Below the pieces are notes generated by a model. It was not told the origin of the DNA and did no database searches. It was given only the letters and a program-made list of their open reading frames with translations. Positions 5,745 through 47,936 of a stretch of 47,936 bases of DNA are shown here, in pieces (the first letter of the stretch is position 1; each line of letters opens with the position of its first letter). Source of the stretch: Lachnospiraceae bacterium (GTDB taxonomy: Bacteria > Bacillota > Clostridia > Lachnospirales > Lachnospiraceae); the NCBI GenBank assembly GCA_016282435.1, contig JAEEKN010000380.1, positions 1-47,936 of the forward strand, written 5' to 3'. A program made the position numbers and the translations under genes.

Positions 5745-5821
5745 TTTGGCTACCTGCCTCTCATATTTGTAATAATGTAGTCGTCTTACTTTAGTATACT
5801 ATGCTACGATATTTCCTCAGA

Positions 5822-6251: not shown

Positions 6252-6256
6252 CGGTA

Positions 6257-6329: not shown

Positions 6330-6384
6330 AGAAACAAGCACTTATGTATAATACTACAAAAAATGCCTGTTGTCAACAAAAATT

Positions 6385-7980: not shown

Positions 7981-7993
7981 GGTGATTTCCTGT

Positions 7994-9013: not shown

Positions 9014-9025
9014 AAATAAACCTGT

Positions 9026-15296: not shown

Positions 15297-15384
15297 CAGG
15301 AATCATCCGTTTATACCAAAGTATGGACGGTCAAACAGGTCTTGCATCTTTGCAAGCCTATATATGATACAGGAGGAAGAGAAC

Positions 15385-16164: not shown

Positions 16165-16250
16165 ATATAATATGGTTGAATAACCGGGCATAAAAACCAA
16201 CACAGGTTTAAGGATCAGGTTTTTATATGCGGGAAAATATGGAGGAAAAA

Positions 16251-31896: not shown

Positions 31897-32009
31897 TGAG
31901 TTTGTGTCTTTTTTCACTACAAAAATAAAAATCCGGGGTTTATAATGAGTGTGTCGACGAACAAAAGCAGCAAATCAAAAAATTGAAAATAGAAAGTGAG
32001 AAGGAACTG

Positions 32010-32762
32010 ATGAGTACTATTTTAAGAACAAAGGATTTAACAAAAAAATACGGAAGCAAGGTAGTTGTTGACAACCTGAATCTCGAAATCGAGGAAGGTG
32101 AAGTGTTTGGTCTCTTAGGACCTAACGGTGCCGGAAAGAGCACCACAATGAACATGATCTGCGATATCATAAAGCCTACTCTGGGAACCGTGGAGTTTAT
32201 GGGAAAAGATTTTAAGAAAAACAGAAAAGAGCTTCATTCCAAGCTCGGATATATACCCCAGGATCTGGCTATTCACGGAAGACTCAAGGCGTGGGAAAAT
32301 GTAGAACTGTTTACATCACTGTACGGGATAAAGGGACAGGAACTAAAGAAAAGAATAGATGAATCACTCGAATACGTAGGTCTTACCGAGAAAAGAAATG
32401 ATTATGCCAGGACATTTTCAGGCGGTATGAAGAGGAGACTGAACATAGCATGTGCCATAGGACATCATCCAAACCTCCTGATATTTGACGAACCCACAGT
32501 CGGCATCGATGCCCAATCCAGGAACTTCATAATGGAGAAGATCAAGGAATCGAACCGAAACGGAGCTACAGTGATCTATACCAGCCATTACATGGAGGAA
32601 GTAGAAGCAATATGCACCAGGATAGCCATCATGGATAACGGCAAGATCATAGCAACAGGAACCGTAGAGGAACTAAAGAAAATGGTAGTTGAAGACACTT
32701 CCAAGATATCTCTTGAAGAAGTGTTCCTGACACTCACCGGAAAGACACTGAGGGATTACTAA
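32010..32762 (+). CDS. ABC transporter ATP-binding protein
   Basis: Walker A GPNGAGKSTT, signature FSGGMKRRL, Walker B LLIFDEPTVGID. ATG at 32010 is preferred over the TTG at 31983. Confidence 0.9.
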   Translation: MSTILRTKDLTKKYGSKVVVDNLNLEIEEGEVFGLLGPNGAGKSTTMNMICDIIKPTLGTVEFMGKDFKKNRKELHSKLGYIPQDLAIHGRLKAWENVELFTSLYGIKGQELKKRIDESLEYVGLTEKRNDYARTFSGGMKRRLNIACAIGHHPNLLIFDEPTVGIDAQSRNFIMEKIKESNRNGATVIYTSHYMEEVEAICTRIAIMDNGKIIATGTVEELKKMVVEDTSKISLEEVFLTLTGKTLRDY

Positions 32763-32763
32763 G

Positions 32764-33891
32764 ATGATTAGATACTTGATTAAAAACAATTTCAAAATAA
32801 TGTTCAGAAGTGCCACGAACATTCTTATCCTGACATTAGCTCCCATAGTGGTAAGTGCAGTGCTTATAAGTGCTTTTTCTGCCATAATGGAGAAGTATCA
32901 GGAAACTGGCAACTTTAAGGTTGGATACAGTTATAACAGCGAGGAGACTCCGGCGGCAGTTATTGACGGGATAAGGGCTATTGCCGAAGAGCAGGGAATC
33001 TCATTTGTAGAATATAAAAATACGGAACCTAAAGATGCATTAGAAGATGATAAGCTTGCCGGTTTTGTGGATTTTGGAAAAGAAAGCTATACAGTATACA
33101 AAACGGATGAAGCTGAGGCGGAAAACCAACTTTTGGAATATATTCTTCATGCTTATTACGAGAACATGTCCATGGCAGTTTCGGGACAGATGGGACATGA
33201 GTCACAGCAGACTGCGGCTACAAAAGAAAGTGCCGGAGAAACGGGTGCGGAAAAAATACAGGTCCTGACCGGAGATTTCATGCCAGCGGTAGATTCTACA
33301 GATTATTACGGTATTATATATCTTGTATATTTTGGCTGGTGCTGTATAGTTTGCGGAGCGGGACTCTTTAACGCAGAGAAAAAATACGGCATAGAAAAAA
33401 GAGAGATGATGTCGGGAATATCGGAGCTTAAGGCCTATCTTTCCAAATTTGTTCCTTTAGCAGCTGTGACATGTGCAGGACTTTCAATCTACGGGGTCGC
33501 ATCGGTCGTAATATTTGGAGTTAACTGGGGAAATGCTTTTCTGTCAATCCTTATCATCATATTGGGGATAATGGCCGCTACAGCGTTGGGACTTATGGTG
33601 TATTCTCTGTGTGACAACATGGTAGTGACAGTAATAGTAGTGTTTATGCTGGTATGGTACTGGGGTTTTTCGGGAGGAAGCTTTGAAACATATATGTTCT
33701 CACAAATGCCTCAAATTTTGAAATCCCTCTCACCTATCTACTACGAAAACAGAGCTCTGATAGAGCTTTCATGTATGGGCAGTACAGATTATGTTATAAA
33801 AAGCATTGCTGTTTCAGGGGGTATGACGGTATTATTCTCAGGAATAGCGGTTTTGGTAAGCACTTTAAGAAGGAGAGGTGGAAAATCATGA
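32764..33891 (+). CDS. ABC-2 type permease 1
   Basis: N-terminal TM helix, a large external loop, and a C-terminal cluster of TM helices. Starts 1 nt after the ATPase stop. Confidence 0.8.
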   Translation: MIRYLIKNNFKIMFRSATNILILTLAPIVVSAVLISAFSAIMEKYQETGNFKVGYSYNSEETPAAVIDGIRAIAEEQGISFVEYKNTEPKDALEDDKLAGFVDFGKESYTVYKTDEAEAENQLLEYILHAYYENMSMAVSGQMGHESQQTAATKESAGETGAEKIQVLTGDFMPAVDSTDYYGIIYLVYFGWCCIVCGAGLFNAEKKYGIEKREMMSGISELKAYLSKFVPLAAVTCAGLSIYGVASVVIFGVNWGNAFLSILIIILGIMAATALGLMVYSLCDNMVVTVIVVFMLVWYWGFSGGSFETYMFSQMPQILKSLSPIYYENRALIELSCMGSTDYVIKSIAVSGGMTVLFSGIAVLVSTLRRRGGKS

Positions 33892-35162
33892 GCGCTTTAG
33901 TAAAATCAACGTTAAAAATCTTATTCAGGATGAAGGGCTTCTGGTTTTTCCTTCTGATAACTCCTTTTTTTACAACGTTGATCCTGTCAACAAGAAACGA
34001 TAATCTGTCATATTTAAGTAATACTGAGGAAACTATTACAGAACTTGATGATATAGATCATGTAGTAGCTTATTTTAGCAGTAATGGAAAATGCGTTATA
34101 AAGGTTTATGACGGATCGAAAGACGGATTGTCGGAATATATGCTGAATAAGATATCTGAAAGCGGCCTTTTTAAAGTCTGCAGAGTAATCCTTTCAGATA
34201 CCGAAAAAAACGACTTTGATGGATTTATCAGGGAAAGACTTGGAGAAGACGGATATAATGACAGAATGGGTGCAGCTATGTTCATACGGCCCGGATTTGC
34301 AGACAATGTCGGCAAATCAGGTAGTACGGTGCTTGATATATATAAGCTTTCTGATGACAGCAGAATCGATATTTTAGAGAGTGAGGTAAAGACCATACTT
34401 TCCAAAATAGAAAAAGCAGCAGAGGCATGTCCGGGAAATGAGCAGGCAGCAGTGGACGCTTTGTTAAGCATTGATAATCTCATTCCTGAAAAGAAGACAG
34501 TGTCCGTATCCTTGGAGAATAAAAACACCCTCGACCTCGAACAGACAAATCAGAAAACCAGAATGGGATACGCGCTTGCAATCCTCACACTTGGATATGT
34601 CTTCGGCGGAATATTTATAGCACATATATGTATCAATGAGCAGAAAGACTGTGTGTTTACCAGGTTCAAGCTGGCAAATATGGGCATGCTGGAATATTTC
34701 TTCTCAAAAGTTGTAACTTCGGTGATAGTTACATTCATGCTTACGGGAGTAATGGGAATATGTACCCTGTTCTTGGATGTCGAAGCGATGGGAATGAGTG
34801 TTCCGAGTTTTCTGCTGGTTATAACACTTATGGGCCTGATATTCAGTACCCTCTCTCTTATGTTGGGAGTTCTTATCGGAGATGTAATGAGTTCAAATGT
34901 AGCAGCATTTACATTATGGAGTATGTCGGCACTGCTTAGCGGTCTGTATTTCCCGATTGATCACACAAGTGACGTAATAAAGACCTTATCTTATGTTATG
35001 CCGCATAAATGGTTTATGGATGGCACCGAATCAATAATAATAGGTGACAAATCGGCCCATGTTATGTTATTATGTATTACAGTAGCATATTTAGTCATAA
35101 TAGCCAGTGTAGGAAGTATGTGCCTTAAGGTAAAAAGGGTTGACTCATGGGGGAGCAATTAA
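33888..35162 (+). CDS. ABC-2 type permease 2
   Basis: ATG at 33888 overlaps the preceding stop (ATGA) and follows AGGAGAGGTGG. The track start at 33771 lies inside the upstream gene. Same topology as permease 1. Confidence 0.8.
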   Translation: MSALVKSTLKILFRMKGFWFFLLITPFFTTLILSTRNDNLSYLSNTEETITELDDIDHVVAYFSSNGKCVIKVYDGSKDGLSEYMLNKISESGLFKVCRVILSDTEKNDFDGFIRERLGEDGYNDRMGAAMFIRPGFADNVGKSGSTVLDIYKLSDDSRIDILESEVKTILSKIEKAAEACPGNEQAAVDALLSIDNLIPEKKTVSVSLENKNTLDLEQTNQKTRMGYALAILTLGYVFGGIFIAHICINEQKDCVFTRFKLANMGMLEYFFSKVVTSVIVTFMLTGVMGICTLFLDVEAMGMSVPSFLLVITLMGLIFSTLSLMLGVLIGDVMSSNVAAFTLWSMSALLSGLYFPIDHTSDVIKTLSYVMPHKWFMDGTESIIIGDKSAHVMLLCITVAYLVIIASVGSMCLKVKRVDSWGSN

Positions 35163-36319
35163 AAAGAAATTACTTTATGATAGTCCGGATTATTCTGATG
35201 CTGAGTTTTGGGATAAGCGGGTATCTGAAAACAGATGTTAGGACAACAGGAGTATCGGTCACGGTACTCCTGCTTGCCGCGTTTTATATCGGGGCAATGG
35301 CACTTTTGGCAACAAATGAAAAATCCCCTGAAAATGATAATGCCAGTACCATAAGATTTAAAACAATCATCGGAATCGCTTCACTTCTGGCAGCAGGGAT
35401 CATATTCTGTATTATGATGGCGGTAGCCGGAAAAAGTTTTATACTTTTCGGATACTATCTTATTTATGAAGCACTTATGTTTTTTAAGGTGCCGGCTTTC
35501 TGCTTTTTTATACCGCTTATTCTGGCTTTTATTCCGGGACCGATAGGATTTCTTGAGCAGTTCCTGATACTGGCCATGATGACGGGCTGTTATATCCAAC
35601 AGGAATTTGTGGTGTCATCATACAGGAGGCAGATCATAGAGGAAACCGTTCTCGAACAGGAACTAAAGAAGGATATAGAAATAAGGGAACAAACGAATAA
35701 AGAAAAAATGAAAAAGAGTTTGTTGGCAGCCAGTAACCAGATACTTGAGGAAAGATCGAACCTGGCTCAGGCACTTCACGATAAGCTGGGTCATAATATA
35801 AATGGCTCCATATATCAGCTTGAAGCTATAAAAGTACTGATGGATAAAGATCCCGAAAAGTCTAAGCAGATGACGCAGGCTGTCATAGACCAGCTCAGGT
35901 CAGGAATGGATGAGATAAGGGCCATTCTTCGTAAGGAACGTCCGGAGAGAAAGGATCTTGCGCTTCTCCAGATATATAAGCTCTGTGAAGACTGTAACAG
36001 CAAAGGGGTTGAAACTAACCTTGAAACTGAGGGGGATATCTCTCTGATTCCCGATAATATCTGGGAGATTATTCTGGATAATGCCTTTGAAGCTGTTTCG
36101 AATTCCATGAAGTATGCGAGATGTAAAAATATCCGGATAAAAATTTTCGTGATGAACAAAATCGTGAAATGCACTATAATAGATGACGGAAAAGGCTGTC
36201 TGGAAGTAAAGGACGGTATGGGAATATCCGGAATGAGAAGACGTGTCCGCAGCGTGAACGGAACACTTGATTTTGAAACCATGACCGGGTTTACGGTAAA
36301 GATGCTGCTGCCGTTGTGA
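35147..36319 (+). CDS. Sensor histidine kinase, HisKA_3 (NarL/LiaS/YvfT-type)
   Basis: N-terminal polytopic membrane domain. H-box LAQALHDKLGHNINGS, N-box LDNAFEAVSNSMKYA, G-boxes DDGKG and GMGISGM. Confidence 0.88.
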   Translation: MGEQLKRNYFMIVRIILMLSFGISGYLKTDVRTTGVSVTVLLLAAFYIGAMALLATNEKSPENDNASTIRFKTIIGIASLLAAGIIFCIMMAVAGKSFILFGYYLIYEALMFFKVPAFCFFIPLILAFIPGPIGFLEQFLILAMMTGCYIQQEFVVSSYRRQIIEETVLEQELKKDIEIREQTNKEKMKKSLLAASNQILEERSNLAQALHDKLGHNINGSIYQLEAIKVLMDKDPEKSKQMTQAVIDQLRSGMDEIRAILRKERPERKDLALLQIYKLCEDCNSKGVETNLETEGDISLIPDNIWEIILDNAFEAVSNSMKYARCKNIRIKIFVMNKIVKCTIIDDGKGCLEVKDGMGISGMRRRVRSVNGTLDFETMTGFTVKMLLPL

Positions 36320-36341
36320 TTTATTTTTAGAGGAGAAGAGT

Positions 36342-37028
36342 ATGGATAAAATCAAAGTAATAATAGCTGATGACAGTGATTTTGTACGTGACGGAATGAA
36401 GATCATCCTCGATGTGGATGATGATTTTGAGGTCATCGGCACTGCGTCGAACGGTCGTGAGGCGATAGAACTGGCAGAAAAACAGAAGCCTGATGTATTT
36501 CTGATGGATATCCAGATGCCGGAAATGGACGGTATAGATGCAACAAAATATATAGTAGAACACGATCTGGGCAAAGTACTGATACTTACCACCTTTGATG
36601 ATGACGACCTGGTAAAGAGAGCACTGAAAAACGGGGCAAAGGGGTATCTTATAAAAAACCATACCCCCGAACACTTAAAACAAATGATAAAATCCGTATA
36701 TAACGGAACAGGGGTAATGGATGAAAACATACTTAATGCGCTGACAAAACTCACTGTTTCCGGTGAAAAGGCAACTGACGCAAGCGATCAGGCGGATTCT
36801 TCGAAGCTGGTACGTAATCTCGCAGACGGATTCGACGCATCAGACTATACCGACAGGGAACTAGATATCATAAAAGCCGTAGCAGAAGGACTGTCAAACA
36901 AGCAGATAGCGGAAAAACTGTACATATCCGAGGGAACTGTTAAGAATTACATAACCAACATTCTCTCTAAAGAAGACTTGTCACACAGGACTGCACTGGC
37001 AGTTTATTATCTCACGGGGAAAAAATAA
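36342..37028 (+). CDS. LuxR/NarL-family response regulator
   Basis: Receiver motifs (VIIADDSDFV, DVFLMDIQMPEMDG, ILTTF, KGYLIK) plus the LuxR HTH (LSNKQIAEKLYISEGTVKNYITNIL), joined by an unusually long linker. Confidence 0.9.
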   Translation: MDKIKVIIADDSDFVRDGMKIILDVDDDFEVIGTASNGREAIELAEKQKPDVFLMDIQMPEMDGIDATKYIVEHDLGKVLILTTFDDDDLVKRALKNGAKGYLIKNHTPEHLKQMIKSVYNGTGVMDENILNALTKLTVSGEKATDASDQADSSKLVRNLADGFDASDYTDRELDIIKAVAEGLSNKQIAEKLYISEGTVKNYITNILSKEDLSHRTALAVYYLTGKK

Positions 37029-37084: not shown

Positions 37085-37162
37085 CATTCTTAAGCAGGTA
37101 GCTGATGTGCATAGTACTGAAAGAAATTGAACACGAAATCCGGCAGTGAACAGGAGGGGTTA

Positions 37163-39625
37163 ATGATGCTGACAGACAGGGAAAGAAAAAATGCAGGTAT
37201 TGTAAGGGGATTACAGGCAGAATGCACGGTTCTGCTGAAGAAAAACGGAGCGTTTCCGCTTGATGGGCCATGCAGGATAGCTCTGTACGGAAACGGAGCC
37301 AGGAATACTATGAGGGGTGGCACCGGATCGGGAGAAGTATACTCTCATTTTACGGTTTCCATAGAGAGAGCCTTGGAGAAAGAAGACTTTACTATTACTA
37401 CCAAAGAATGGCTTGATGCATATGACGAAGTGTTAAAAAAATGCCGGAAAGAATTTATTAATGATATAAAGAGGAGAGCAAAAGAAAAGCATGTAAACCC
37501 GGTTTTTGAGGGAATGGGTGCTGTTATGCCTGAGCCTGACTATAATATTCCGCTGACGGGTGAAGGAGATGTTGCGGTCTACGTACTGTCAAGAATCTGC
37601 GGGGAAGGAAACGACAGAGTACCCGAAAAAGATATTCTGCTTACAAAGACCGAGATAAAGACAATTTTAAAACTGAACAGGAAATATGAGAAATTCATGC
37701 TGGTGCTGAATGTCGGAGGACCCGTTGACCTGACACCTGTTTTGGAGGTAGAAAACATTTTGCTCCTTTCACAGCTCGGAGCACTCACGGGATATGCATT
37801 TTCTGATATACTTCTCGGAAAGAAAACTCCTTCAGGTAAACTGGCTACTACATGGGTTTCATGGAATGAATATCCCGAGCTTTTTGACTTCGGGGATAAG
37901 GATGATACCAGGTATAAAGAAGGAATTTATGTAGGATACAGATATTTCAATACCGTAGGAACGAAGCTGTTGTTCCCCTTCGGATACGGACTCTCGTACA
38001 CTGATTTTGATGTACGGTATCAGGGGATTACACATGACGGTGAAAAGGTTACGGTAGATTTTAATGTGGAGAACACCGGAAATACTTTTGGAAAAGAAGT
38101 GGTTCAGGTGTACATTGCCAAGCCCTCTCTAAAGCTTGACCAGCCGGCAGCGGTACTTGCAGGATGGGTTAAAACGGAAAAACTTGGCGCCGGGGAGAGT
38201 ACAAAGGTCTCGGTAAGTTTTAAGATGTCTGAACTGGCGAGCTATGATACCGGGTGTAGCAGCTATATTCTTGAAAAAGGTGACTATGTCATAAAATATG
38301 GTGTCGACAGTGTGCAGCTTACTTCGTGCGCAGTTGTGAGGATACCGGATACTGTGACAGTAAGAGAAGTTGAAAGTTCCTTTGAAGGTCCGGATTTTAC
38401 AGATTTTAAGCCTGAGTCTGATCGTAAATCAATAAGCGATGAGAAATGCGATACAGGTTTATCAGAAGGAAATAATGCGGCTTCTAACTTGCCGGTGGTT
38501 ATAATAGATGGTAAGGATATACCTACGGAGAAAATTAATTATGATACGGTAACAGAGATTCCAGATGAGGTAAAGGGGCTCTCGGATGAAGAATTAATCT
38601 ATTTAAATATCGGAGCTTTCTTCGGAGGCGGCGTCGGCGGAAGTATGATAGGAAACGCAGGAAGGCTTGTAGCGGGAGCAGCAGGAGAAACTACCGAAAA
38701 ACTGCGCGACAAAGGTATTCCGTCTCTTTCCATGGCAGACGGTCCGGCAGGCGTACGTATCAGTAAAAAGTACTGGGTTGATGCTGACGGGGCTCATTCT
38801 GTAGGGAATACCATGCTTGAAGGTCTGTCGGATTTCCTGCCCAAGCCTGCAGCCATCATCAGCAAGCTGTTTACTTCTTCAAAACCTAAACATGGTGAAA
38901 AGATAGAGACTCATTATGCTACAGCCATTCCCATAGGAACCGCCCTGGCACAGAGCTGGAATTTAAAACTTGCTGAAAGGTGCGGAGATATAGTAGGCGG
39001 TGAGATGCAGGAGTTTGGAGTTCATCTGTGGCTTGCACCTGCTATGAATATTCACAGGCACATCCGTTGCGGAAGGAACTTTGAGTATTATTCGGAGGAT
39101 CCGTTGATCACGGGAAGGATGGCTGCGGCTATAACTAAAGGTGTCCAGAAGCATAGAGGCTGTGGAGTAACTATCAAGCATTTTTGCGTAAATAATCAGG
39201 AATATAACAGATGTTTTAATAACAGTATGGTCAGCGAAAGGGCATTGAGGGAAATATATCTTAAGGGCTATGAAATATGTGTTAAGGAAGCTCAGCCCAT
39301 GACGGTTATGTCGTCCTACAATCTGCTAAACGGCATACATACCAATGAGAGGAAGGACCTGCTGGAGAATATTTTAAGAAATGAATTCGGCTTCAAAGGC
39401 ATAGTCATGACTGACTGGCTGATCAGTTCGGTTCCGAACTATGGTACAAAACACCCCGCATCTAGCGCGGCAAGAGTTGCGGCAGCAGGCGGTGAGATAG
39501 TTATGCCGGGCAGCCGGGAGGATTTTGATGACATGATGTCCGCTTTGAAGGATGGGACGCTTACGAGAAGCAGACTTGAGATAAATGCTACCAGGCTTAT
39601 AAGATTAATAAGAGCTTTGACATAA
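37163..39625 (+). CDS. Glycoside hydrolase family 3 beta-glucosidase with permuted domain order
   Basis: ATG at 37163 follows GGAGGGG. The N-terminal part resembles the GH3 alpha/beta-sandwich domain (ALYGNGARNTMRGGTGSGEV) and the Fn3-like domain (EVVQVYIAKP). The catalytic TIM-barrel blocks lie at the C-terminus: KHFCVNNQE, SYNLLNG, and GFKGIVMTDW with the nucleophile Asp. Confidence 0.85.
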   Translation: MMLTDRERKNAGIVRGLQAECTVLLKKNGAFPLDGPCRIALYGNGARNTMRGGTGSGEVYSHFTVSIERALEKEDFTITTKEWLDAYDEVLKKCRKEFINDIKRRAKEKHVNPVFEGMGAVMPEPDYNIPLTGEGDVAVYVLSRICGEGNDRVPEKDILLTKTEIKTILKLNRKYEKFMLVLNVGGPVDLTPVLEVENILLLSQLGALTGYAFSDILLGKKTPSGKLATTWVSWNEYPELFDFGDKDDTRYKEGIYVGYRYFNTVGTKLLFPFGYGLSYTDFDVRYQGITHDGEKVTVDFNVENTGNTFGKEVVQVYIAKPSLKLDQPAAVLAGWVKTEKLGAGESTKVSVSFKMSELASYDTGCSSYILEKGDYVIKYGVDSVQLTSCAVVRIPDTVTVREVESSFEGPDFTDFKPESDRKSISDEKCDTGLSEGNNAASNLPVVIIDGKDIPTEKINYDTVTEIPDEVKGLSDEELIYLNIGAFFGGGVGGSMIGNAGRLVAGAAGETTEKLRDKGIPSLSMADGPAGVRISKKYWVDADGAHSVGNTMLEGLSDFLPKPAAIISKLFTSSKPKHGEKIETHYATAIPIGTALAQSWNLKLAERCGDIVGGEMQEFGVHLWLAPAMNIHRHIRCGRNFEYYSEDPLITGRMAAAITKGVQKHRGCGVTIKHFCVNNQEYNRCFNNSMVSERALREIYLKGYEICVKEAQPMTVMSSYNLLNGIHTNERKDLLENILRNEFGFKGIVMTDWLISSVPNYGTKHPASSAARVAAAGGEIVMPGSREDFDDMMSALKDGTLTRSRLEINATRLIRLIRALT

Positions 39626-39644: not shown

Positions 39645-41072
39645 ATGTTCAGGTGTGATTATAAGAAACTTTGCCTAGCTTTTAACTGTTTTCATGATGT
39701 TCAAGTGGATGACATGCCTGAGTATGGGGACTATGTTCTTATCGAATTAAAGGACGGACGCCATACAGCAGGATGCTGGTATCCGAAAGATGATGAGGAG
39801 ACTGTATCAGGAAGCTTCAGTCGGGACAGTTTTGACTCCGTTGACGTTGGGGAAGTATCGAAATGGCAGCCACTTAACGGATATGACCTTACAGGATCGC
39901 TGGAGAAGGAGAATATCAATCGAATAATTCTGGGATCCGATGAAGATGACCCTTATATTGTCGAGATCAGGGATTTTAAGTCATTTAAGGATGGAGATTT
40001 CCCCAAAAACAAACAATTCTGCCTCCTGATCTTAATTGACGGAACTTTGGCAGCAGGAAGGTGGAATAAGCTGGGAGAAGATGACGGACAGTTTATTTAT
40101 GCATCAGCTCTGGCATCCCACAGTATGAATAAGGTTTGGGCATGGACTCCATTAAGTTCCGATGAAATATTTGAGGAGGAAGAAGAAAAAGAAAGAGAGC
40201 GCTTAGCCGAGGAGGAACTAAACAAACATCCTACGGCCGATCCCGAGAAATTCAAATACGGAACGGATATAAATGCTTATTATGAAAAGGCTTTGGAAAA
40301 ACTGCGTGAGGAATATCCCTGGGCAACTCTTGCACAGATGAAAAAGAAAACGCCATATGTGATCGTGCCTCGCCACGGACAGTATATTTTCGGAAAAGAC
40401 TGTGGGACGTATATGGGACAGAATGTAGTCAGGGAATGGATTGACGGCAGTACTGCCGATGAATTTGTTGATTTCCTGCGTGAGTACACCCGGGAAAAGG
40501 TGAAGAATTCCGATCCTGTAGTGAAATTCAAATACGGAACTGAAATTAAAGTATATTTTGAAAAAGCATACGAAAAAGTCAAAAAGGATTATCGATGGTT
40601 TAATAAGGAAATGGCAGATAATTACTGCCAATATGCGATAATAGAGGTAGACGGCGAACCGGAATTCGCCAGGAAATTTAATAACGATAAAGAATTCCAC
40701 GTGTACGATTGTGAAAGTGCTGACGGATTATTGAAAAATATGGAGTATGAATTTCAGGAAGCGGCACTTAAGGAAAATCCTGTTGTGGCAGAGTATGCGG
40801 TACCGTTTGGAAGGGTTGACGCGAACGGATGGTGTCTGGAAAAATATATCGTATATAAGCTTAAGTCAGGTGATTACAAGGTATTTGTACAGGCCGGAGA
40901 CAGGACTGCAGGAGGCAGCAGAGAGTTCTTTATTACACCTGACTGCTTTGAAGCAAAAACATATGATGAGTTTTTGGACCGTTATCTGGAAATCGTTCCG
41001 GGTAGTTCATTTGGACTCAATAAACAGGATCTTGCTCCCGATATGGAACTGAAAAAATTCTTTGGATATTAA
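39645..41072 (+). CDS. Hypothetical cytoplasmic protein built from two internally duplicated module pairs
   Basis: Good RBS (GGAGCGGAG). Duplicated blocks: YVLIELKDGRHTAGCWYP...KWQPL versus CLLILIDGTLAAGRWNK...WAWTPL, and KFKYGTDINAYYEKALEKLREEYPW versus KFKYGTEIKVYFEKAYEKVKKDYRW. No known motif recognised. Confidence 0.7.
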   Translation: MFRCDYKKLCLAFNCFHDVQVDDMPEYGDYVLIELKDGRHTAGCWYPKDDEETVSGSFSRDSFDSVDVGEVSKWQPLNGYDLTGSLEKENINRIILGSDEDDPYIVEIRDFKSFKDGDFPKNKQFCLLILIDGTLAAGRWNKLGEDDGQFIYASALASHSMNKVWAWTPLSSDEIFEEEEEKERERLAEEELNKHPTADPEKFKYGTDINAYYEKALEKLREEYPWATLAQMKKKTPYVIVPRHGQYIFGKDCGTYMGQNVVREWIDGSTADEFVDFLREYTREKVKNSDPVVKFKYGTEIKVYFEKAYEKVKKDYRWFNKEMADNYCQYAIIEVDGEPEFARKFNNDKEFHVYDCESADGLLKNMEYEFQEAALKENPVVAEYAVPFGRVDANGWCLEKYIVYKLKSGDYKVFVQAGDRTAGGSREFFITPDCFEAKTYDEFLDRYLEIVPGSSFGLNKQDLAPDMELKKFFGY

Positions 41073-41130: not shown

Positions 41131-44100
41131 ATGATATTAGGAAAAAAAGCATGTTTATCACGGATTGGAAAATGTTTGATCGCGACGTTGATTGCGGTTG
41201 TGATGATTACGGGTGTGTTCACGGCAACAGATTTCAGCCCGGTTCGGGCTGCTGTTGATAAGTCTGCAGCTCAGAATGAAGTTAAAAGCAAGGTCACTAA
41301 AAAAGAGGCGAAGAACTTTGTTAAAAAAGTAGCAAAGGTCAACAAGATAAAAAACATTCTAAAAAAACACAGCTCATTCAGCATATCTTATGTTGATTAC
41401 GACCTTTGGATTGACAAAGAAAAAGCGTTTTATAACAATCTTGTATCAAAACGCAGTATTTATGCCGATGAAGACTTTATCTGCATACTTGAAGGTGATG
41501 ATCCGTCAACATTTTATTATGTGGTGGATACCGATGGACGCGGAGATAAGTATGCCGGTACTAATGCCTATAATTTAGTTGATAATATTTTAACTGCGGA
41601 CAATCTTCTTGAAGAGAAACCTGCTTCACTGGTTAATGACGGTAAAACGATTACATATACCGGTAAACTGTCAAAGGAGAATATAGAAGTTTTTAAGAAA
41701 CTGTTAGGAATAACAGAAGATGTAAAAGAAGTGTATAGCCGGTTGGTTGTAAAGGCTGATACCTATGAAGTCTTGGAATACGCTACATATTCAATAGGGA
41801 AAGAAGAACATCCGGAATTTTGTGTTCAGTATGCTTATGATACTGAAGAACCTGTAGGGTGTTGCCTGTTGCGAAGGATGGCTCATCGTCAGGAAAGGGA
41901 CACCGTTAAATTTTCAGTGATCCGTGATAAGGGTACGGAAAAAGAGTATATTAAACAGATGACAATTCCGCAGAATTGCGGAGTAATGGTATATGCAAAA
42001 GGAACCGATGGACAATATATTGATGACGGATTTACAAAACTGTTTGAAAAATGGGATAGAAAGAGTGACATAACACTTTATTGCAGAACAGTGGAAAATA
42101 GTGATGGTAATGCTGATTCGGAAACGGATGAAATAAGTTCAAAACTTGACGAGGAATATGAGCGCCTCTTACCCGACCTTGGACCGCGCCTTGAGGAATG
42201 GAATGCGGAACTCGCAAAATGTTCCGAAGAAGAGAAGCGGATCATGAAGTACTATTTTATCACGACCTCGATGAATGAACTGTGCAGTATAGATTTTTCA
42301 CTTCTTCATAGTTATGCATCACATGCAGCACAGCTTCGTGAAAATATGCCCTGGACAAAGGCACTTGATGAGGATACATTCCTGTGTTATGTAGCTTCTT
42401 ACAAGGTGTACGTTGAACCGGTAGTTGACTGCAGACCCTTTTTCTATGAACAGCTTTCCGAACTGGTGAAGGGAAAGTCTCTCACTGAAGCGGCACTTCT
42501 GGTGAATTTCTGGTGTGGCTGTCAGGCGACTTATGAAGATAGCGACGAGAGAGCTGCATCTCCTCTCGGAATGTATAATGGTGGAGCCGGGAGATGCGGT
42601 GAAGAAGCAACCTTTGTTGTAAATGTACTACGCAGTGTAGGTATTCCTGCACGCGAATGTGACGTAGATTGGAGTATAGTCTTAGGCGGGCATGCATTCG
42701 TTCAGATACTTGTAGATGGAGAATGGCATTATATGGGTGCCTGTGAGCCTGACCCTGTGCTGGATTCCGGATGGTTTACGGGAAGACTTGGAAGTCTTAT
42801 TTGTACGAGTTCATATTCCTTTAGCGAAATCGGAGTGGGTCAGTCTTATATAGACGATTACGGGGTTTATAAAATTAATGATATTGCTGATTTTACAGAT
42901 ACAAAGAAAATAACAATCACAGTACTTGACAAGGACGGAAAGCCTGCTCCTAATGTTAGTACAGATCTTATGGTGGTTCAACCCGGATCGTTTCTTAGTA
43001 CTCTGGTAACTTTGACTACCGATAAGAATGGAGAGGCAAAATACTCTATAGGCAAAGGAAGTATATATGCTGTGGCATATATGGAAGACGAATGGCGTGG
43101 GACTTGGATTACTCAGGATCAAAAGAAAGCTACCATATCTTTTGCTGAAGAACCCCAATATGATGTATGGGAGAGTTTCGAGATAAGATACAACGAAGCG
43201 GATGCAAAGAATGTACAAACATACACTGATGAGGACTGGAGAGCTCTTTTCGGTACAAAAACGATAGATGAAATCAGAGCCGAAAACCATTCCGGTGATT
43301 TTGATCCGGAACGTGCCGCAGCATATCCTGACTGCGAAGAGAGCTTGCGCAGTGCCGGCAGAAATTTTGATGAACTTATCACTTTCCTTGAAAAAGACGA
43401 TGATCCTCTCAGGAGTGTTCTTGTGAAGGGACTTTCCGAAAAATACTGTTGTGAAGTCAAATCTGATGTTCTGGAAGATATATTACAGGGGGCTAAAAAG
43501 GTTCGTGGAGAACTTAACGATGACATTTTCGTAAACGGTATTTTATACCCGGTATATGAATGGTCGTATTTTATGCCGCAGAGACAGGATGTTTTGAACC
43601 TGTTTACAAAGAAACAACTGAAAAAATTCAGAAAAGATCCTTCGACGTTAAAGAAGTGGTTTGAAGCCAATATTTCCGATAAATGTATAAGGCAGTATCA
43701 AAATGGTATTCCTTCTCTTATCGGTACATTGAAAATGGGGTATTGTCCTGAAGGATGTCGAACCGTGATCTTGATGGAACTGGCGAGAGCTATAGGCATA
43801 CCTGTATATCAGGATGAAAATACATTGCAATGGTTTTATTACAGAGAAAACGAGTGGATAGTTGCAGATTGGACTTTTGATCCGGAAAAAGAAAGCACGG
43901 GTAAGGTACAATATCTGCTTCCTGACAGTGAAAAATATCTGGGAGAAATCTGGACGCTTGTAGGTGATTACAGAGACTACGGATTGGAAACTTGGATATT
44001 TTGGCCGGTAGAAGAAGGGGATCAGGAAGAGATAGGTGACTTACCTGTAGGAGATTATGTGATGCTTTATGCAGATATGTCCGAAGAAAAGTCAGGAACA

Positions 44101-44160
44101 CTTTATATGAGATATGTGAAGGTAGAGGAAGGAAAGACGACGGTTTTAAAACTTCCCTGA
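41131..44160 (+). CDS. Large signal-anchored/secreted transglutaminase-like (papain-fold Cys-His-Asp) protein
   Basis: N-terminal hydrophobic segment CLIATLIAVVMITGVFTA. The transglutaminase core GRCGEEATFVVNVLRSVGIPARECDVDWSIVLGGHAFVQILVDGEWHYMGACEPD holds the Cys, His and Asp. Confidence 0.8.
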   Translation: MILGKKACLSRIGKCLIATLIAVVMITGVFTATDFSPVRAAVDKSAAQNEVKSKVTKKEAKNFVKKVAKVNKIKNILKKHSSFSISYVDYDLWIDKEKAFYNNLVSKRSIYADEDFICILEGDDPSTFYYVVDTDGRGDKYAGTNAYNLVDNILTADNLLEEKPASLVNDGKTITYTGKLSKENIEVFKKLLGITEDVKEVYSRLVVKADTYEVLEYATYSIGKEEHPEFCVQYAYDTEEPVGCCLLRRMAHRQERDTVKFSVIRDKGTEKEYIKQMTIPQNCGVMVYAKGTDGQYIDDGFTKLFEKWDRKSDITLYCRTVENSDGNADSETDEISSKLDEEYERLLPDLGPRLEEWNAELAKCSEEEKRIMKYYFITTSMNELCSIDFSLLHSYASHAAQLRENMPWTKALDEDTFLCYVASYKVYVEPVVDCRPFFYEQLSELVKGKSLTEAALLVNFWCGCQATYEDSDERAASPLGMYNGGAGRCGEEATFVVNVLRSVGIPARECDVDWSIVLGGHAFVQILVDGEWHYMGACEPDPVLDSGWFTGRLGSLICTSSYSFSEIGVGQSYIDDYGVYKINDIADFTDTKKITITVLDKDGKPAPNVSTDLMVVQPGSFLSTLVTLTTDKNGEAKYSIGKGSIYAVAYMEDEWRGTWITQDQKKATISFAEEPQYDVWESFEIRYNEADAKNVQTYTDEDWRALFGTKTIDEIRAENHSGDFDPERAAAYPDCEESLRSAGRNFDELITFLEKDDDPLRSVLVKGLSEKYCCEVKSDVLEDILQGAKKVRGELNDDIFVNGILYPVYEWSYFMPQRQDVLNLFTKKQLKKFRKDPSTLKKWFEANISDKCIRQYQNGIPSLIGTLKMGYCPEGCRTVILMELARAIGIPVYQDENTLQWFYYRENEWIVADWTFDPEKESTGKVQYLLPDSEKYLGEIWTLVGDYRDYGLETWIFWPVEEGDQEEIGDLPVGDYVMLYADMSEEKSGTLYMRYVKVEEGKTTVLKLP

Positions 44161-44202: not shown

Positions 44203-44445
44203 ATGGAAAAAGGTTATGAAGTAATGAAACAGCTTGTAGAAAGTGGTGATTTTGAAGCGTTATCTTCGAAAGAGGATTTAGAGAAGGTACTTTTAGAACA
44301 TGGATGTTCAAAAGAAGAGATTGAGGGAATTTTATCTGAATTTGGCGGTTTCCCTCTCGATGATGAAGATCTTGCTGCTATCACCGGGGGATTTTCAACG
44401 AAGGTTCCTGTTATAGCTGATATAACACAGCCATTTCATATTTAA
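44203..44445 (+). CDS. Putative RiPP precursor peptide 1 (Nif11-like leader, double-glycine motif, 17-aa core)
   Basis: ATG at 44203 lies 7 nt after GGAGA; the ATG at 44197 is only 1 nt from the SD. 80 aa: 63-aa acidic helical leader ending PLDDEDLAAITGG, then FSTKVPVIADITQPFHI. Confidence 0.7.
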   Translation: MEKGYEVMKQLVESGDFEALSSKEDLEKVLLEHGCSKEEIEGILSEFGGFPLDDEDLAAITGGFSTKVPVIADITQPFHI

Positions 44446-44513
44446 CAAATTATTTTGAAAAGCCTGAATTCTGAGTAAACCTGCAGATCAGGTTGTATGA
44501 AGGGAGGAAGAAT

Positions 44514-44753
44514 ATGGATAAGGGTCATGAAGTAATAAAACAGCTTGTGGAAAGCGGTGAGTTTGAGGCACTGATATCAAAGGAGGATTTGGAAAAAACG
44601 CTTCTGGAGCATGGATGCTCAAAAGAAGAGATTGAAAGTGTTTTATCCGAATTTGAAGGATTCCCTTTGGACGATGATGATATCGAGGCAATCACCGGAG
44701 GCGGTAGTATGCCAAAAAGCGTTCATGTTCGGGTTTGCGACATAACTCGCTAA
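44514..44753 (+). CDS. Putative RiPP precursor peptide 2 (Nif11-like leader, double-glycine motif, 16-aa core)
   Basis: ATG at 44514 lies 6 nt after GGGAGG. 79 aa: the leader is 51/63 identical to peptide 1 and ends PLDDDDIEAITGG, then GSMPKSVHVRVCDITR. Confidence 0.7.
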   Translation: MDKGHEVIKQLVESGEFEALISKEDLEKTLLEHGCSKEEIESVLSEFEGFPLDDDDIEAITGGGSMPKSVHVRVCDITR

Positions 44754-44862: not shown

Positions 44863-45927
44863 GTGACAGAACATTTAGGAAATATCACAATAAGTATATG
44901 TATGATAGTCCGTAATGAAGAGGCTGTTCTGGAGCGTTGTCTCAATTCGGTCAGGGGCGTATATGATCAGCTGGTGATAGTTGACACAGGCTCTGAAGAT
45001 GAGACCGTATCAATTGCACGTCGTTTTACGGATGAGGTTTTCTGTGAACCGTGGGAGAATGATTTCGGTAAAGCCAGAAACAGCTCGTTTTCACATGCAC
45101 GTTCAGATTATATCATTTATCTTGATGCCGATGATGTTTTGCCGGAGGAAGAAAAGGAAAAGCTTCTGAAACTTAAAACCGAGCTTTCCACCTTGCCGGA
45201 GGACGAACGTCCACGTACGATACTGATGAGTTACGATGTACCGGAGGCAGGAGGTATTTCTTTTCGTCAGCGTATGGTAGCCAGGCATGATGACAGACCA
45301 TACTGGCATGGAGCGATACATGAGTGCATGGATTATGAAAAGCCAGTAATGACTACAGATATTATGTTCCTTCACCGAAAGCTGGTACAGCCCCCGAAGG
45401 ATCGTAACTGCAACATCATCCGTGCTATACCCAGAGAAGAACTGAAGAATAACTTCTGGCTGAGTGCCCAGTGTAATCTTGATATGCTATTGGCCGGACA
45501 TGAAGAGGAGGCTGAGGAATATTTCAATATGTGCGAGGACGAGGCAGGAAGTAATATATCCGTGGTTGCAGGGAGTGGCGTAGGTACTAATCCGGATACT
45601 ACCTGTGACACCGGGGATGATAGGTATACTGGATATCCGTACATGGATATATGTCTGCAGTTGGCTTCAACTCTTAATCATCATAAGCTTTGGGAAGGGG
45701 CGTTTCGTTGGGTAAAACTGTCTGAAAGAATATGGTCGGACCACAGTGGAGCAGTTTACGATAATAGTGTGCTCCTCATGCTATACCAACAGGGAGTAAA
45801 GGCATTAACAGGCTTAGGCAGATTAGAAGAAGCTGTCTTATATAATGAAAAAGTGCTTGAACTGGCACCGGATAACCGGGCAGCTTTGATGAATCGTGCT
45901 TATTTTGCGAAGAAGCTTAAATCGTGA
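44863..45927 (+). CDS. SunS-like GT2 + TPR peptide glycosyltransferase, paralogue 1
   Basis: GTG lies 6 nt after GGGAGGAG. GT-A blocks: ISICMIVRNEEAVLERCLNSV, VIVDTGSEDET, WENDFGKARN, YLDADDVL, WHGAIHE. The helical C-terminal half has TPR-like repeats (EEAVLYNEKVLELAPDNRAALMNRAYF). Confidence 0.75.
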   Translation: MTEHLGNITISICMIVRNEEAVLERCLNSVRGVYDQLVIVDTGSEDETVSIARRFTDEVFCEPWENDFGKARNSSFSHARSDYIIYLDADDVLPEEEKEKLLKLKTELSTLPEDERPRTILMSYDVPEAGGISFRQRMVARHDDRPYWHGAIHECMDYEKPVMTTDIMFLHRKLVQPPKDRNCNIIRAIPREELKNNFWLSAQCNLDMLLAGHEEEAEEYFNMCEDEAGSNISVVAGSGVGTNPDTTCDTGDDRYTGYPYMDICLQLASTLNHHKLWEGAFRWVKLSERIWSDHSGAVYDNSVLLMLYQQGVKALTGLGRLEEAVLYNEKVLELAPDNRAALMNRAYFAKKLKS

Positions 45928-45941
45928 TCAAGGAGAAATGT

Positions 45942-47048
45942 ATGCAGGAGAATAAAGCCGGGATAACCGTAAGTGTCTGCATGATAGTACGGGATGAGTC
46001 GCCTGTCCTGGCAAGATGTCTTGACGGGGTATCGGTATTTGCGGACGAAATTGTTATCGTGGATACGGGATCGATAGATGATACACGTGAGATAGCCTTG
46101 CGCTATACAGACCGGGTATATGATTTCCCGTGGATAGATGATTTTGCCGCAGCCCGAAATGTTTCTTTCTCATATGCGTCAATGGATTATGTGATGTGGC
46201 TGGATGCGGATGATGTGATATCTTATGCTGATGCCATGCTGATAAAGGAACTGAAGCATACGCTTCCCGGTGAAACGGATATGGTGTTCTTTCTGTATGG
46301 AGGGGAACGCGATCAGGAAAATGTTTATAATAATTCTTTTGTTTTCCGTGATCGTTGGTTCCGCAGAAGCCTGAATCCTGTCTGGCACGGAAGACTCCAT
46401 GAATATGTAACTATGTCGAAAGAAGCTGTAAAATACTATGATGACCGGATATGTATCCGTCACTGCAAAGTCAGGGTAAACGATCCTGAACGTAACATGC
46501 GTATTCACAAGCTTTGTATGGCTGAACAGACAGAACCCGATGCACGCAACATGGGTTTTTTGTGCAATGAGTATTTTTCAAAAGGAGAATTGGAGAACGC
46601 TGTTTCTATGTTTGACGAACTAACCGGACAGGAACATTTCCCTGCGTTTGATGTTAAAAATGCGCTATCATCATATATTTTTAGCATGAAAAGCTTAAAA
46701 AGAAATGACGAGCTGATCTGCCGGCTTTTGTCATTACAGGAAAATGGTGTTGTAAATGAAATGCTGCTGACTGAATTAGGGGTAGCTTTTTTAGCCCGGA
46801 AAGAATATGATGAAGCTGAAAAATATCTGAAAGATGCGCTTAAACTACCCGTCGATTACCGGGATATGTCGGTACATTTTGAAGCTTATCATGAATTTAT
46901 ACCTTGTCAGAAATTATCGAAACTTTATGCTGTTAAAGGAGACATGAAGACAGCTTACGAGTATTTTAAAAGAGCTGAAAAAATTTACCCGGAAAATAAG
47001 ACGATAAAACTGAACCGTGCATATTTCAATCGGGAAAGTATTACATAG
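45942..47048 (+). CDS. SunS-like GT2 + TPR peptide glycosyltransferase, paralogue 2
   Basis: ATG at 45942 lies 5 nt after AGGAGA. GT-A blocks: VSVCMIVRDESPVLARCLDGV, VIVDTGSIDDT, WIDDFAAARN, WLDADDVI, WHGRLHE. TPR-like C-terminal half (YDEAEKYLKDALKL, MKTAYEYFKRAEKIYPENKTIKLNRAYF). Confidence 0.75.
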   Translation: MQENKAGITVSVCMIVRDESPVLARCLDGVSVFADEIVIVDTGSIDDTREIALRYTDRVYDFPWIDDFAAARNVSFSYASMDYVMWLDADDVISYADAMLIKELKHTLPGETDMVFFLYGGERDQENVYNNSFVFRDRWFRRSLNPVWHGRLHEYVTMSKEAVKYYDDRICIRHCKVRVNDPERNMRIHKLCMAEQTEPDARNMGFLCNEYFSKGELENAVSMFDELTGQEHFPAFDVKNALSSYIFSMKSLKRNDELICRLLSLQENGVVNEMLLTELGVAFLARKEYDEAEKYLKDALKLPVDYRDMSVHFEAYHEFIPCQKLSKLYAVKGDMKTAYEYFKRAEKIYPENKTIKLNRAYFNRESIT

Positions 47049-47130: not shown

Positions 47131-47178
47131 AAAGGCGTTAATGGAAACTTTTGGTTTCAGTTAGCGCCTTTTTGTTTT
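47131..47178 (+). terminator. Strong rho-independent terminator ending the GH3-to-GT unit
   Basis: AAAGGCGTTAA (47131-47141) / TTAGCGCCTTT (47161-47171) with an inner GAAAC/GTTTC stem, followed by TTGTTTT. Confidence 0.8.
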
Positions 47179-47256
47179 CAAAATGAAACTATATGACAAT
47201 GAAAAGTAATACTGGACTGTAAATGTCCTAGGTAAAGAAGGGAGGACGAACAAAAA

Positions 47257-47936
47257 TGAATAATCAGAAGCTTGTTAAGCATACTGACAGGATAAATACT
47301 TTGTTGGCCCGTTACGGTGTGAAATTCGGTATCTATAAGAATAATACATTCAAGGAACAGTTATTTCCGTTCGATTCTATTCCGAGAATTATTGAATACT
47401 CCGAGTATAAAATGCTGGAAAAAGGGCTGAAACAGAGAGTTTTGGCCCTTAATATTTTTTTGAAGGATATATACTCTGATAAAAAAATTGTTAAGGACGG
47501 TGTTGTACCGGAAGATTTTATCTATGCTTCTTCGGGGTATATGGCAGAGTGTGAGGACGTTATGCCGATGAAGGGAATTTATTCTCATATCTCCGGTATT
47601 GACCTTGTAAAAGGCAAAGATGATGAATGGTATGTCTTAGAGGATAATTTAAGAGTTCCGTCAGGTGCATCATATCCGATGATTGCAAGGGATTTATGCA
47701 GGAAGAGTTCACCGGAGACCTTTAACCATGTAAGGTTGATCGATAACCGTAATTATGCGGATCTGCTCAGGAAAACCATGGACTATGTAAATACCGGAGG
47801 ACATACAGTAATTCTTACGCCGGGAAGATATAACTCTGCTTATTTTGAACATTCCTATCTTGCTGAAAAGACTGGTGCACATCTGGTAACAGGGTCAGAG
47901 CTATTTGTTGAAAATGATGTGTTGTATTATATAAGC
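47257..47936 (+). CDS. Circularly permuted type-2 ATP-grasp protein, N-terminal part (runs off the window)
   Basis: Absent from the ORF track because no stop is reached. The ATG at 47257 follows GGGAGG, and the frame is open to the window end (226 codons). Blocks FPFDSIPRII, LEKGLKQRVLALNIFLKDIY, HISGIDLV and WYVLEDNLRVPSGASYP match the CP_ATPgrasp_2/DUF404 family as I recall it. Confidence 0.7.

Follow-up and report, generated by a model that had tools for sequence, protein, structure and literature searches.

To our knowledge, all characterised glycosylated bacterial peptides that are made by ribosomes and modified after translation (RiPPs) are glycocins, which carry O- or S-linked sugars and are stapled by disulfides. 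A further set of RiPP precursors, those with Nif11 leaders, pair in the systems we know with LanM, cyclodehydratases or radical-SAM enzymes and not with GT2-TPR enzymes, i.e. family 2 glycosyltransferases (GTs) with tetratricopeptide repeats (TPR). Glycocin cores are about 37-43 residues long with a helix-loop-helix structure, two nested disulfides and O/S-linked sugars, and their clusters carry a peptidase-containing ATP-binding cassette (ABC) transporter (PCAT) and a thioredoxin-like gene (PMC12457901). Here we analyse two adjacent small genes, pepA and pepB, on a 47,936-nucleotide stretch of DNA from a Lachnospiraceae bacterium (GenBank assembly GCA_016282435.1, contig JAEEKN010000380.1, positions 1 to 47,936 of the forward strand), called the window in the following. 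With a probability of roughly 0.55, we read pepA and pepB as precursors of leader-guided glycosylated RiPPs that are distinct from glycocins, probably modified at a recurring Asn or Asp (Asx) motif and exported by unlinked machinery.

The two precursor genes

A preliminary description of the window had proposed twin small genes, each with its own Shine-Dalgarno (SD) sequence, encoding 80 and 79 residues. Both open reading frames (ORFs) are present on the plus strand:

44203..44445, plus strand: pepA precursor, 80 residues, ATG at 44203, stop ending at 44445
44203-44391: pepA leader, 63 residues, ending ...LAAITGG
44392-44442: pepA core, FSTKVPVIADITQPFHI
44419-44421: conserved Asp of pepA, residue 73, core position 10
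44514..44753, plus strand: pepB precursor, 79 residues, ATG at 44514, stop ending at 44753
44514-44702: pepB leader, 63 residues, ending ...IEAITGG
44703-44750: pepB core, GSMPKSVHVRVCDITR
44739-44741: conserved Asp of pepB, residue 76, core position 13

The leader ends ...PLDDEDLAAITGG and ...PLDDDDIEAITGG and the two tails agree with those quoted in that description, and a recount of the gap-free alignment of residues 1-63 gives the same 51 identities. For pepA the SD sequence AGGAG is positioned 8 nt 5' of the ATG at 44203; another ATG in the same frame, at 44197, is separated from it by only 2 nt, and homologues begin with M-[EDS]-K-G. GGGAGG is found upstream of pepB, which is extended to a TTG at 44493 in the ORF listing.

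The leader DNA of the two genes is identical in 144 of 189 nt, with 22 synonymous and 12 non-synonymous codon differences, while the tail DNA is identical in 13 of 48 nt, which is chance level. Because synonymous differences exceed non-synonymous ones and the tails are at chance, the leader is under purifying selection as a coding sequence. Comparison of the two sequences indicates that pepA and pepB are a duplicated gene, in which selection has kept the first 63 codons and the last 16-17 codons have been replaced. The resulting cores of 16-17 residues contain no Cys in pepA and one in pepB.

A peptide family with a conserved leader and variable tails

The small ORFs have conserved counterparts elsewhere. 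When 5.8 billion proteins were searched for close relatives, only 11 clusters (90% identity) were found; a profile search of 1.84 billion representatives (50% identity) found 60 matches, nearly all of them proteins of 70-130 residues, and a profile search of 90% clusters found 42 clusters. The sources are metagenome bins of uncultured Clostridia, Lachnospiraceae, Oscillospiraceae and Treponema. About 90 distinct relatives retain the helical leader of ~63 residues and the canonical double-glycine motif, with hypervariable tails.

The family consensus is M-x-E-[LI]-x-K-K-L-...-A-L-x-S-...-A-A-x-E-L-G-Y-S-x-E-E-I-...-G-F-P-L-D-D-D-D-L-x-E-I-x-G-G, and conservation collapses past the GG; in an alignment of 57 sequences it is confined to the leader. 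Thus the homologues are not uniformly conserved along their full length but are sharply split, as expected from the earlier proposal of conserved leaders with varying tails. An AlphaFold2 model of pepA, based on a 38-sequence alignment, has helices at residues 3-14, 23-32, 37-46 and 54-61 with a predicted local distance difference test score (pLDDT) of 80-87, and a tail predicted to be disordered with a pLDDT of about 50. Multiple precursors with differing tails per locus are found in the window (two) and in the related loci L013 (two), L015 (two) and L022 (four and a truncated copy). A conserved leader, a variable tail and several copies per locus are hallmarks of RiPP precursors. This split, together with the conserved synteny with GT2(-TPR) genes described below, supports the identification of pepA and pepB as RiPP precursors.

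The product class had been called undescribed, and this assessment still holds. The cores with no or one Cys fit none of the classes excluded before, and neither LanM, LanBC or LanKC nor a radical-SAM enzyme was found in the window, where the only CxxxCxxC motifs belong to Rnf subunits. In the literature, of which our coverage of journals was incomplete, we found no description of the peptide family, no paper on a GG/Nif11-like leader with GT2-TPR enzymes and none on an N-linked RiPP.

No fold neighbour of the leader was found with E < 1, and the Pfam matches to UBA, RuvA_C and DUF5333 are all below threshold. A phage origin, as for sublancin, was rejected since there are no relatives in viral contigs.

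A shortened relative is encoded in L029 at 10256-10366, directly after a full-length precursor. This mini-precursor of 36 residues, MKELIKKLLDDEDLEEIAGG-AVTQRILQYQNATVRF, has an in-frame deletion of leader residues ~10-52, keeps the first helix and the GG, and has Asn11 of its core within N-A-T.

Leader type

The last 12 leader residues of both peptides fit the double-glycine cleavage consensus exactly, in agreement with the preliminary description. The consensus used was a hydrophobic residue at -12, an acidic one at -8, hydrophobic residues at -7 and -4, Gly at -2 and Gly, Ala or Ser at -1. The respective residues are L52 (-12), D56 (-8), L57 (-7), I60 (-4), G62 and G63 in pepA and L52, D56, I57, I60, G62 and G63 in pepB, and G62 and G63 are at least 90% conserved across the family. 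The hydrophobic residues at -7 and -12 are those bound by the pockets of the C39 peptidase of PCATs (PMC12457901). The ComC model matches the same 12 residues, and the bacteriocin_sig model (TIGR01847) scores the window peptides with 15.0 bits against a cut-off of 15.7.

The leader had furthermore been described as Nif11-like. In hidden Markov model (HMM) scans with PF07862 and TIGR03798, pepA and pepB had no match at E <= 10, which rules out direct membership of the Nif11 family. TIGR03798 matched 17 of 57 relatives at E < 1, with a best E of 1e-6, and relatives scanned individually reached 14-16 bits against a cut-off of 32.3. A locus from a Treponema sp. metagenome-assembled genome (MAG; L030, GCA_024695475.1) also encodes three true PF07862 precursors, and hhalign aligned our family to these with a probability of 81.9% (E = 1.1e-5) over only 47 C-terminal columns, from the 'AAKELGYS' helix to the GG. 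The term Nif11-like is therefore appropriate for the architecture and a remote resemblance (hhalign 82%), but not for family membership, for which the HMM cut-offs were missed. Judged from the sequences, the Nif11 link is a likeness of architecture and possibly one of remote descent.

In L030 the Nif11 precursors are found at 15128-17094, where an extracytoplasmic function (ECF)-type sigma factor is followed by the three Nif11-domain precursors and a 77-residue ORF. They possess GG motifs and Trp-rich cores (WFHFGWAKEQE, WSYNPWAYGG...) and lie 5.6 kb downstream of the GT and peptide module; no modifying enzyme for them was found within the locus.

An Asn/Asp motif in the tails

The preliminary description regarded the two tails as unrelated, with only a D-I-T tripeptide in common. 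They are indeed not alignable pairwise (2 of 16 residues identical), but a position-specific motif of Pro6, Asx10 and frequently Ser/Thr12 recurs across the family. When 92 dereplicated tails were anchored at the GG, 24 of 90 had Asn and a further 16 had Asp at position 10 (44% together), against a background of 10.4% for Asn and Asp combined (binomial p = 1.4e-16; the tail p-values overstate independence, as the sequences are related and phylogeny was not corrected for). A second Asx peak is located at position 13 (19 of 89). The Asx signal stands out against the hypervariable surrounding columns despite the relatedness of the sequences. Pro is found at -4 of Asx10, which is tail position 6, in 17 of 40 tails, a basic residue is common at -5, and Ser or Thr is found at +2 in 10 of 24 Asn tails and in 7 of 16 Asp tails. 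The Asp of D-I-T is invariant in the close subfamily and falls on the family Asx positions 10 (pepA) and 13 (pepB).

In the 51 tails outside the close subfamily, N-x-[ST] was observed 34 times compared to 15.5 +/- 3.3 in per-tail shuffles, none of 5000 shuffles reaching this number, and 21 tails have at least one such motif where 11 are expected. The controls on the same set, i.e. the reversed motif, D-x-[ST], N-x-[AG] and N-[ST], were not enriched. A conserved Ser, Thr or Cys column was not found in the tails: the tail MPGVRPPIRD has none of these residues before the Asp, and the tail SAVYRPPTKIDPVK has none after it.

Glycosyltransferases and gene neighbourhood

Downstream of pepB follow two glycosyltransferase genes and a terminator:

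44863..45927, plus strand: GTa, 354 residues, GT2 glycosyltransferase with C-terminal helical/TPR region
45924..47048, plus strand: GTb, 374 residues, GT2-TPR glycosyltransferase, 4-nt overlap with the GTa stop
47131..47179, plus strand: intrinsic terminator closing the operon past GTb, 12+6 bp hairpin followed by a U-run

GTa matches PF00535 at 1e-21 and has weak TPR matches, while GTb matches PF00535 at 2e-16 and TPR_2 at 4e-8. The best NCBIfam model for both is SunS (TIGR04195), with 68.9 bits for GTa and 45 bits for GTb against a cut-off of 350. Their closest neighbours among solved structures are GmaR (7e-22 for GTa, 9e-22 for GTb) and SunS (3e-18 and 2e-9, respectively), both of them enzymes that attach sugars to peptides or proteins. 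The terminator has a minimum free energy of -28.5 kcal/mol, compared to -15.0 +/- 2.8 for shuffled sequences (z = -4.9; 0 of 200 as stable). An attenuator or terminator between the precursors and the GT genes was rejected, since no hairpin in that stretch reaches significance (z = -1.2 and -1.6).

The preliminary description had suggested testing whether GT2-TPR genes co-occur. Every related locus for which enough flank was available has GT2(-TPR) genes adjoining the peptide, which makes about 15 independent contexts, the Treponema MAG among them. All close loci have a GTa orthologue beside the peptide; in L010 and L017, where the GTs are fused, it makes up the N-terminal half. GTb is the only enzyme found in every locus of the wider family; its orthologues stand beside the peptide with 38-69% identity in L009, L013, L014, L016, L019, L020 and L025, and in the L010 and L017 fusions they make up the C-terminal half. 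Altogether, GTa and GTb are fused into a single polypeptide in L010, L017, L029 and L030. The minimal module is found in L031 with a GT2, a GT2-TPR and a peptide of the Asn type (tail after GG: YIIVKPSCVNTAGSK). More elaborate loci add GT8-TPR, GT8 and further GT2 enzymes, a radical-SAM enzyme and sugar-nucleotide genes, the radical-SAM gene being carried by Asn-type relatives. A gene for a thioredoxin-like protein or thiol-disulfide oxidoreductase is absent from the window and from all related loci.

The radical-SAM protein is itself conserved, with ~415 residues, the N-terminus MKEFTWE.YD... and a Cys-rich C-terminus, and accompanies Asn-type peptides and GT8-TPR enzymes. It was found at the following positions:

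L010, 8070-9317
L016, 5051-6328
L025, 9517-10761
L029, 11827-13074
L030, 13035-14252

A secreted transglutaminase-fold protein marks the Asp type

Directly upstream of pepA lies a further gene:

41131..44160, plus strand: transglutaminase-fold protein, 1009 residues, with N-terminal signal/anchor, PF01841 core and Big_1 Ig-like domain

The PF01841 core scores 31.9 bits against a cut-off of 23, and 45.3 bits in the orthologue of L009; Big_1 is also annotated. The protein is 59% identical over 690 residues to the gene directly 5' of the peptide in an unrelated high-GC Clostridia MAG, and orthologues with 50-61% identity over about 690 residues hold the same position in seven lineages. The loci with an orthologue so placed include L001, L002, L005, L012, L013, L015, L020 and L022. 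In these seven lineages all tails have Asp, mostly as D-P, D-I or D-V, whereas in the eight lineages without the gene in the available flanks all tails have Asn. One of the latter is L024, whose GTa is 67% identical to the window GTa. The gene is the first of a conserved Asp-type module that includes the window. This upstream gene and the modifying enzymes are the parts of the system that we add to the preliminary description.

The catalytic core motif is GRCGEE...H...ACEP, with the Cys and His invariant in 45 sequences. The closest profile matches of the core are PDB 3isr (7e-6) and the PNGases 1x3w (3.6e-4), 3esw (3.9e-4) and 2f4m (9e-4), followed by TG2 (0.016) and factor XIII (0.33). An identification as PNGase was rejected and is retained as a lead: Foldseek with the full AlphaFold2 model (pLDDT 91.9) gave only generic transglutaminase-fold (3isr, TG2, factor XIII) and Ig-like matches, with no PNGase in the top 50, and the column of the PNGase catalytic Asp is Gly in the window family, followed by an invariant Cys-Glu-Pro. 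Still, at the level of sequence, a PNGase-like enzyme beside glycosyltransferases and an Asx-centred motif is suggestive. The protein has a signal peptide or lipobox and would therefore act outside the cell.

A large family of secreted 'transglutaminase domain-containing' proteins of 800-900 residues (homologues of window 42100-44160, P0084-P0189) includes the peptide-linked enzyme as one small branch. These are found in Lachnospiraceae, Muribaculaceae and Prevotellaceae with an invariant motif GRCGEES...DDNHAWVEV...GACEPE and no annotated function, and one cluster alone has 13,345 member sequences. In L013 a second secreted transglutaminase-core protein of 933 residues, with Listeria-Bacteroides repeats and BspA-type leucine-rich repeats, is encoded at 6645-9446, two genes past the GT pair and after a MatE transporter.

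Proposed pathway and alternative explanations

The chemistry, export and activity of the peptides, as we infer them, would be as follows. The leader would be bound in the cytoplasm by GTb, through its helical/TPR part, together with GTa. The Asx motif, being a fixed distance away, would thereby come to lie in the GT-A active site and receive one or two sugars. The favoured acceptor is the Asx side chain, because no other tail residue is conserved and because of the N-x-S/T enrichment; in Asn-type relatives this would be an N-linkage, and the +2 Ser/Thr would assist as a helper residue. Next, the leader would be cut off after the GG, and a C39-peptidase ABC transporter encoded elsewhere would export the peptide. 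After export, the (glycosyl-)Asp of Asp-type peptides may be acted on by the secreted transglutaminase/PNGase-like cysteine enzyme. Two differing cores would thus give two products from one enzyme set.

These proposals can be joined into a more far-reaching version, which we put forward tentatively and consider rather unlikely: a first RiPP class glycosylated on Asx side chains by cytoplasmic leader-guided GT2-TPR enzymes, with an N-linked, GT8-extended glycan on Asn10 and, on Asp10 or Asp13, a glycosyl ester that the PNGase-like enzyme would use outside the cell. The ester might be removed in a prodrug step, deglycosylation unmasking the peptide, or might serve as an activated acyl donor for transamidation, resulting in a macrolactam with the new N-terminus or in attachment to an amine.

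A number of points weigh against the glycosylated-RiPP reading. Every chemical step of the glycosylation is one that we infer, and the Asp acceptor in the window's own cores is the weakest: Asp cannot be N-glycosylated, so that these cores would need an ester link or another acceptor. SunS uses Cys and GmaR Ser/Thr, and a GT2 enzyme with the side chain of a peptide Asn or Asp as its acceptor is not known to us. Moreover, Asx is exactly at position 10 in only about 44% of the tails, and Ser or Thr is at +2 in about 40% of the Asx10 sites. The export machinery is another concern. All known glycocins have a PCAT within the cluster (PMC12457901), while Pfam annotation found no C39/PCAT exporter in the 48-kb window, where the transporters are all of the ABC-2 type; a crude scan for the C39 motif, covering the window as well as all loci, gave nothing, and about 15 loci, judged from the gene lists of long contigs (including L020, L029, L030 and L031), have none within 10 kb. 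An immunity gene was not evident in any locus either.

One alternative is an O- or S-glycosylation of the glycocin type, with a hexose or N-acetylhexosamine on a tail Ser, Thr or Cys (S2, T3 or T12 in pepA; S2, S6, C12 or T15 in pepB) and Asx-x-Ser/Thr as no more than a recognition or turn motif. The best NCBIfam match of both GTs is S-linking SunS and the best solved structure O-linking GmaR, Ser/Thr is enriched at +2 of Asx, and pepB and its orthologues retain a Cys directly before the Asp. We nevertheless think it unlikely, as no Ser/Thr/Cys column is conserved and variants without the +2 hydroxyl (D-P-A, D-P-V, D-P-G, N-T-V, N-I-A, N-T-A) keep the Asx; nested disulfides, oxidoreductase and PCAT are all missing, and the TIGR04195 scores are far below the cut-off. 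The fixed distance of the Asx from the GG could instead mark a processing site. The mature product would then be the segment of 10 to 13 residues from GG to Asx (e.g. FSTKVPVIAD), released or cyclised (head-to-tail or head-to-side-chain) by the transglutaminase-fold enzyme in the Asp-type loci. Transglutaminase-fold enzymes form acyl-enzyme thioesters, and the lasso-peptide B protease is a RiPP precedent for this fold in maturation. The labile Asx-Pro bond is frequent (D-P in 6 of 16, N-P also) and the extracellular Cys-His enzyme is found only with Asp-type cores. On the other hand, D-I and D-V bonds are not labile, Asp at P1 is unusual for papain-like enzymes, some tails stop two to three residues past the Asx (DPG, DVT), and the universally linked GT pair is left without a role, all of which makes this explanation improbable. 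The same low standing applies to its counterpart for the Asn-type loci, release by Asn/Asx-Pro chemistry with the residues past the Asx as a follower peptide, since no candidate protease is found there.

The missing transporter, C39 protease and immunity gene would agree with peptides that are never exported, either carriers for glycan assembly that are later cut off or small helical regulators or substrates of GmaR-like bifunctional GTs; GmaR is both enzyme and anti-repressor. The leader is predicted to be a folded four-helix unit, and Asn-type loci with up to five GT domains and sugar-nucleotide genes resemble glycan assembly lines. This would leave the perfect PCAT-type GG motif kept throughout the family unexplained, hypervariable tails and several differing copies per locus are unexpected for a carrier or regulator, and the secreted partner enzyme implies an extracellular step, so that we give such cytoplasmic partners a slim chance. 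Weak ComC, bacteriocin_sig and class IIb matches on the GG motif and a flagellin gene next to the peptides in L022 would fit unmodified bacteriocin or pheromone precursors of the ordinary double-glycine type (class II) that are chance neighbours of cell-envelope or flagellin glycosylation genes. We consider this very improbable: the GT pair adjoins the peptides in about 15 contexts in two phyla, with translational coupling or overlap, the leader has 63 residues and not 15-30, and tails of 14-18 residues are too short and polar for class II bacteriocins.

If the preferred reading of leader-guided glycosylated RiPPs is true, one or two soluble GTs and a 63-residue leader tag would make up a compact, portable system, in which short, freely variable peptides are decorated at a position set by the distance from the leader and which could be of use in the glyco-engineering of peptides. 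We know of no double-glycine leader peptides that are modified by a sugar at a fixed Asn or Asp. With Asn or Asp as acceptor, a new cytoplasmic chemistry would be added to Firmicutes and spirochaetes, be it N-glycosylation or acyl-glycoside formation. That Asp cores are strictly paired with a secreted PNGase-like enzyme points to a step of maturation outside the cell that is still unexplored.

Other genes in the window

Upstream of the transglutaminase-fold gene are a GH3 gene (37127-39625), which looks circularly permuted with the C-terminal domain first, and a gene for a 475-residue protein (39645-41072, plus strand). The latter belongs to no Pfam or NCBIfam family and has an internal duplication, seen as FKYGTDINAYYEKALEKLREEYPW and FKYGTEIKVYFEKAYEKVKKDYRW. 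Both genes were rejected as parts of the peptide module, because they recur only in the near-identical strains L005 and L023. Past the terminator a separate transcription unit starts with a circularly permuted type-2 ATP-grasp gene (CP_ATPgrasp, PF14403, 1.6e-64; 47256-47936, plus strand, cut by the window end). It was rejected as well, given the strong terminator before it and the different gene, an AAA-ATPase_like one, that takes its position in L023. None of the three genes flanks the module in other lineages.

About 4 kb upstream of the peptide operon (31983-37028, plus strand) an ABC-2 transporter (ATPase and two permeases) precedes genes for a HisKA_3 kinase and a LuxR/GerE response regulator. 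Peptide-antibiotic sensing or immunity modules commonly have such a layout; it is also seen in L023, and other lineages lack it beside the peptide module. Two overlapping genes at 27778-29222 (plus strand) encode secreted proteins made of ~110-residue repeats with the motif D(I/V)DW(F/Y)KYTVNS...RW...(I/F)YD, and the first, which was the only one scanned, has no Pfam match. On the minus strand an AMP-binding enzyme is fused to a nitroreductase domain (3663-5744), an unusual fusion, beside genes at 6385-7980 and 7994-9013, also on the minus strand, which by eye are membrane-bound O-acyltransferase- and DltD-like. From its sequence, the 3663-9013 region may be a locus for acylation of the cell envelope.

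Comparison with known systems

The PNGases, which act on glycosyl-Asn and leave Asp, share with the window protein a PF01841 core with invariant Cys and His and the motifs GRCGE and CE. They differ in that the best profile match of the window core, 3isr, is an uncharacterised putative protease, and that the window enzyme family is secreted, with 700-1000 residues and Ig-like and other domains. For the proposed modification itself, HMW1C/NGT (GT41) is an analogue in function only: a soluble enzyme transfers a hexose onto the Asn of N-x-S/T and a second enzyme extends the glycan. Similarly, the Asn-type relatives have tails that are twofold enriched in N-x-S/T and loci that additionally encode retaining GT8 enzymes. 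GT41 is, however, unrelated to GT2, the NGT substrates are large adhesins and not leader-guided peptides, and the window peptides have Asp.

With GmaR, the Listeria flagellin O-GlcNAc (N-acetylglucosamine) transferase, the window GTs have the GT2 and TPR layout in common, at E values of about 1e-21 over the N-terminal ~90 residues, and GmaR likewise glycosylates protein in the cytoplasm. Its substrate is Ser/Thr of flagellin, whereas the GTs of the window family neighbour a small GG-leader peptide and flagellin is adjacent only in L022. Nif11 precursors such as the prochlorosins resemble pepA and pepB in the acidic helical leader of ~60-70 residues ending L-x-D-x-x-L-x-x-[IV]-A-G-G, in hypervariable cores, in several precursors per enzyme set and in an exporter that is sometimes unlinked, but the window peptides are below the HMM thresholds and only the C-terminal two thirds of the leader align.

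The glycocins (sublancin SunA/SunS, glycocin F GccF/GccA, thurandacin, pallidocin and thermoglycocin) have a ribosomal precursor with a double-glycine-type leader and an adjoining GT2 with a helical C-terminal region, as in the window, and SunS is the top NCBIfam and a top solved-structure match for the window GTs. In contrast, the cores of the window family have 14-18 residues with no or one Cys and are predicted to be disordered, the 63-residue leader is predicted to be folded, there are two GTs, with TIGR04195 scores of 69 and 45 bits below the equivalog cut-off of 350, the conserved residue is Asn/Asp, and no PCAT or oxidoreductase is linked. The window system is most like the glycocin pathway in its working, yet lacks the features that define glycocins; it may represent a new variety of glycosylated RiPPs with a real chance of new chemistry.

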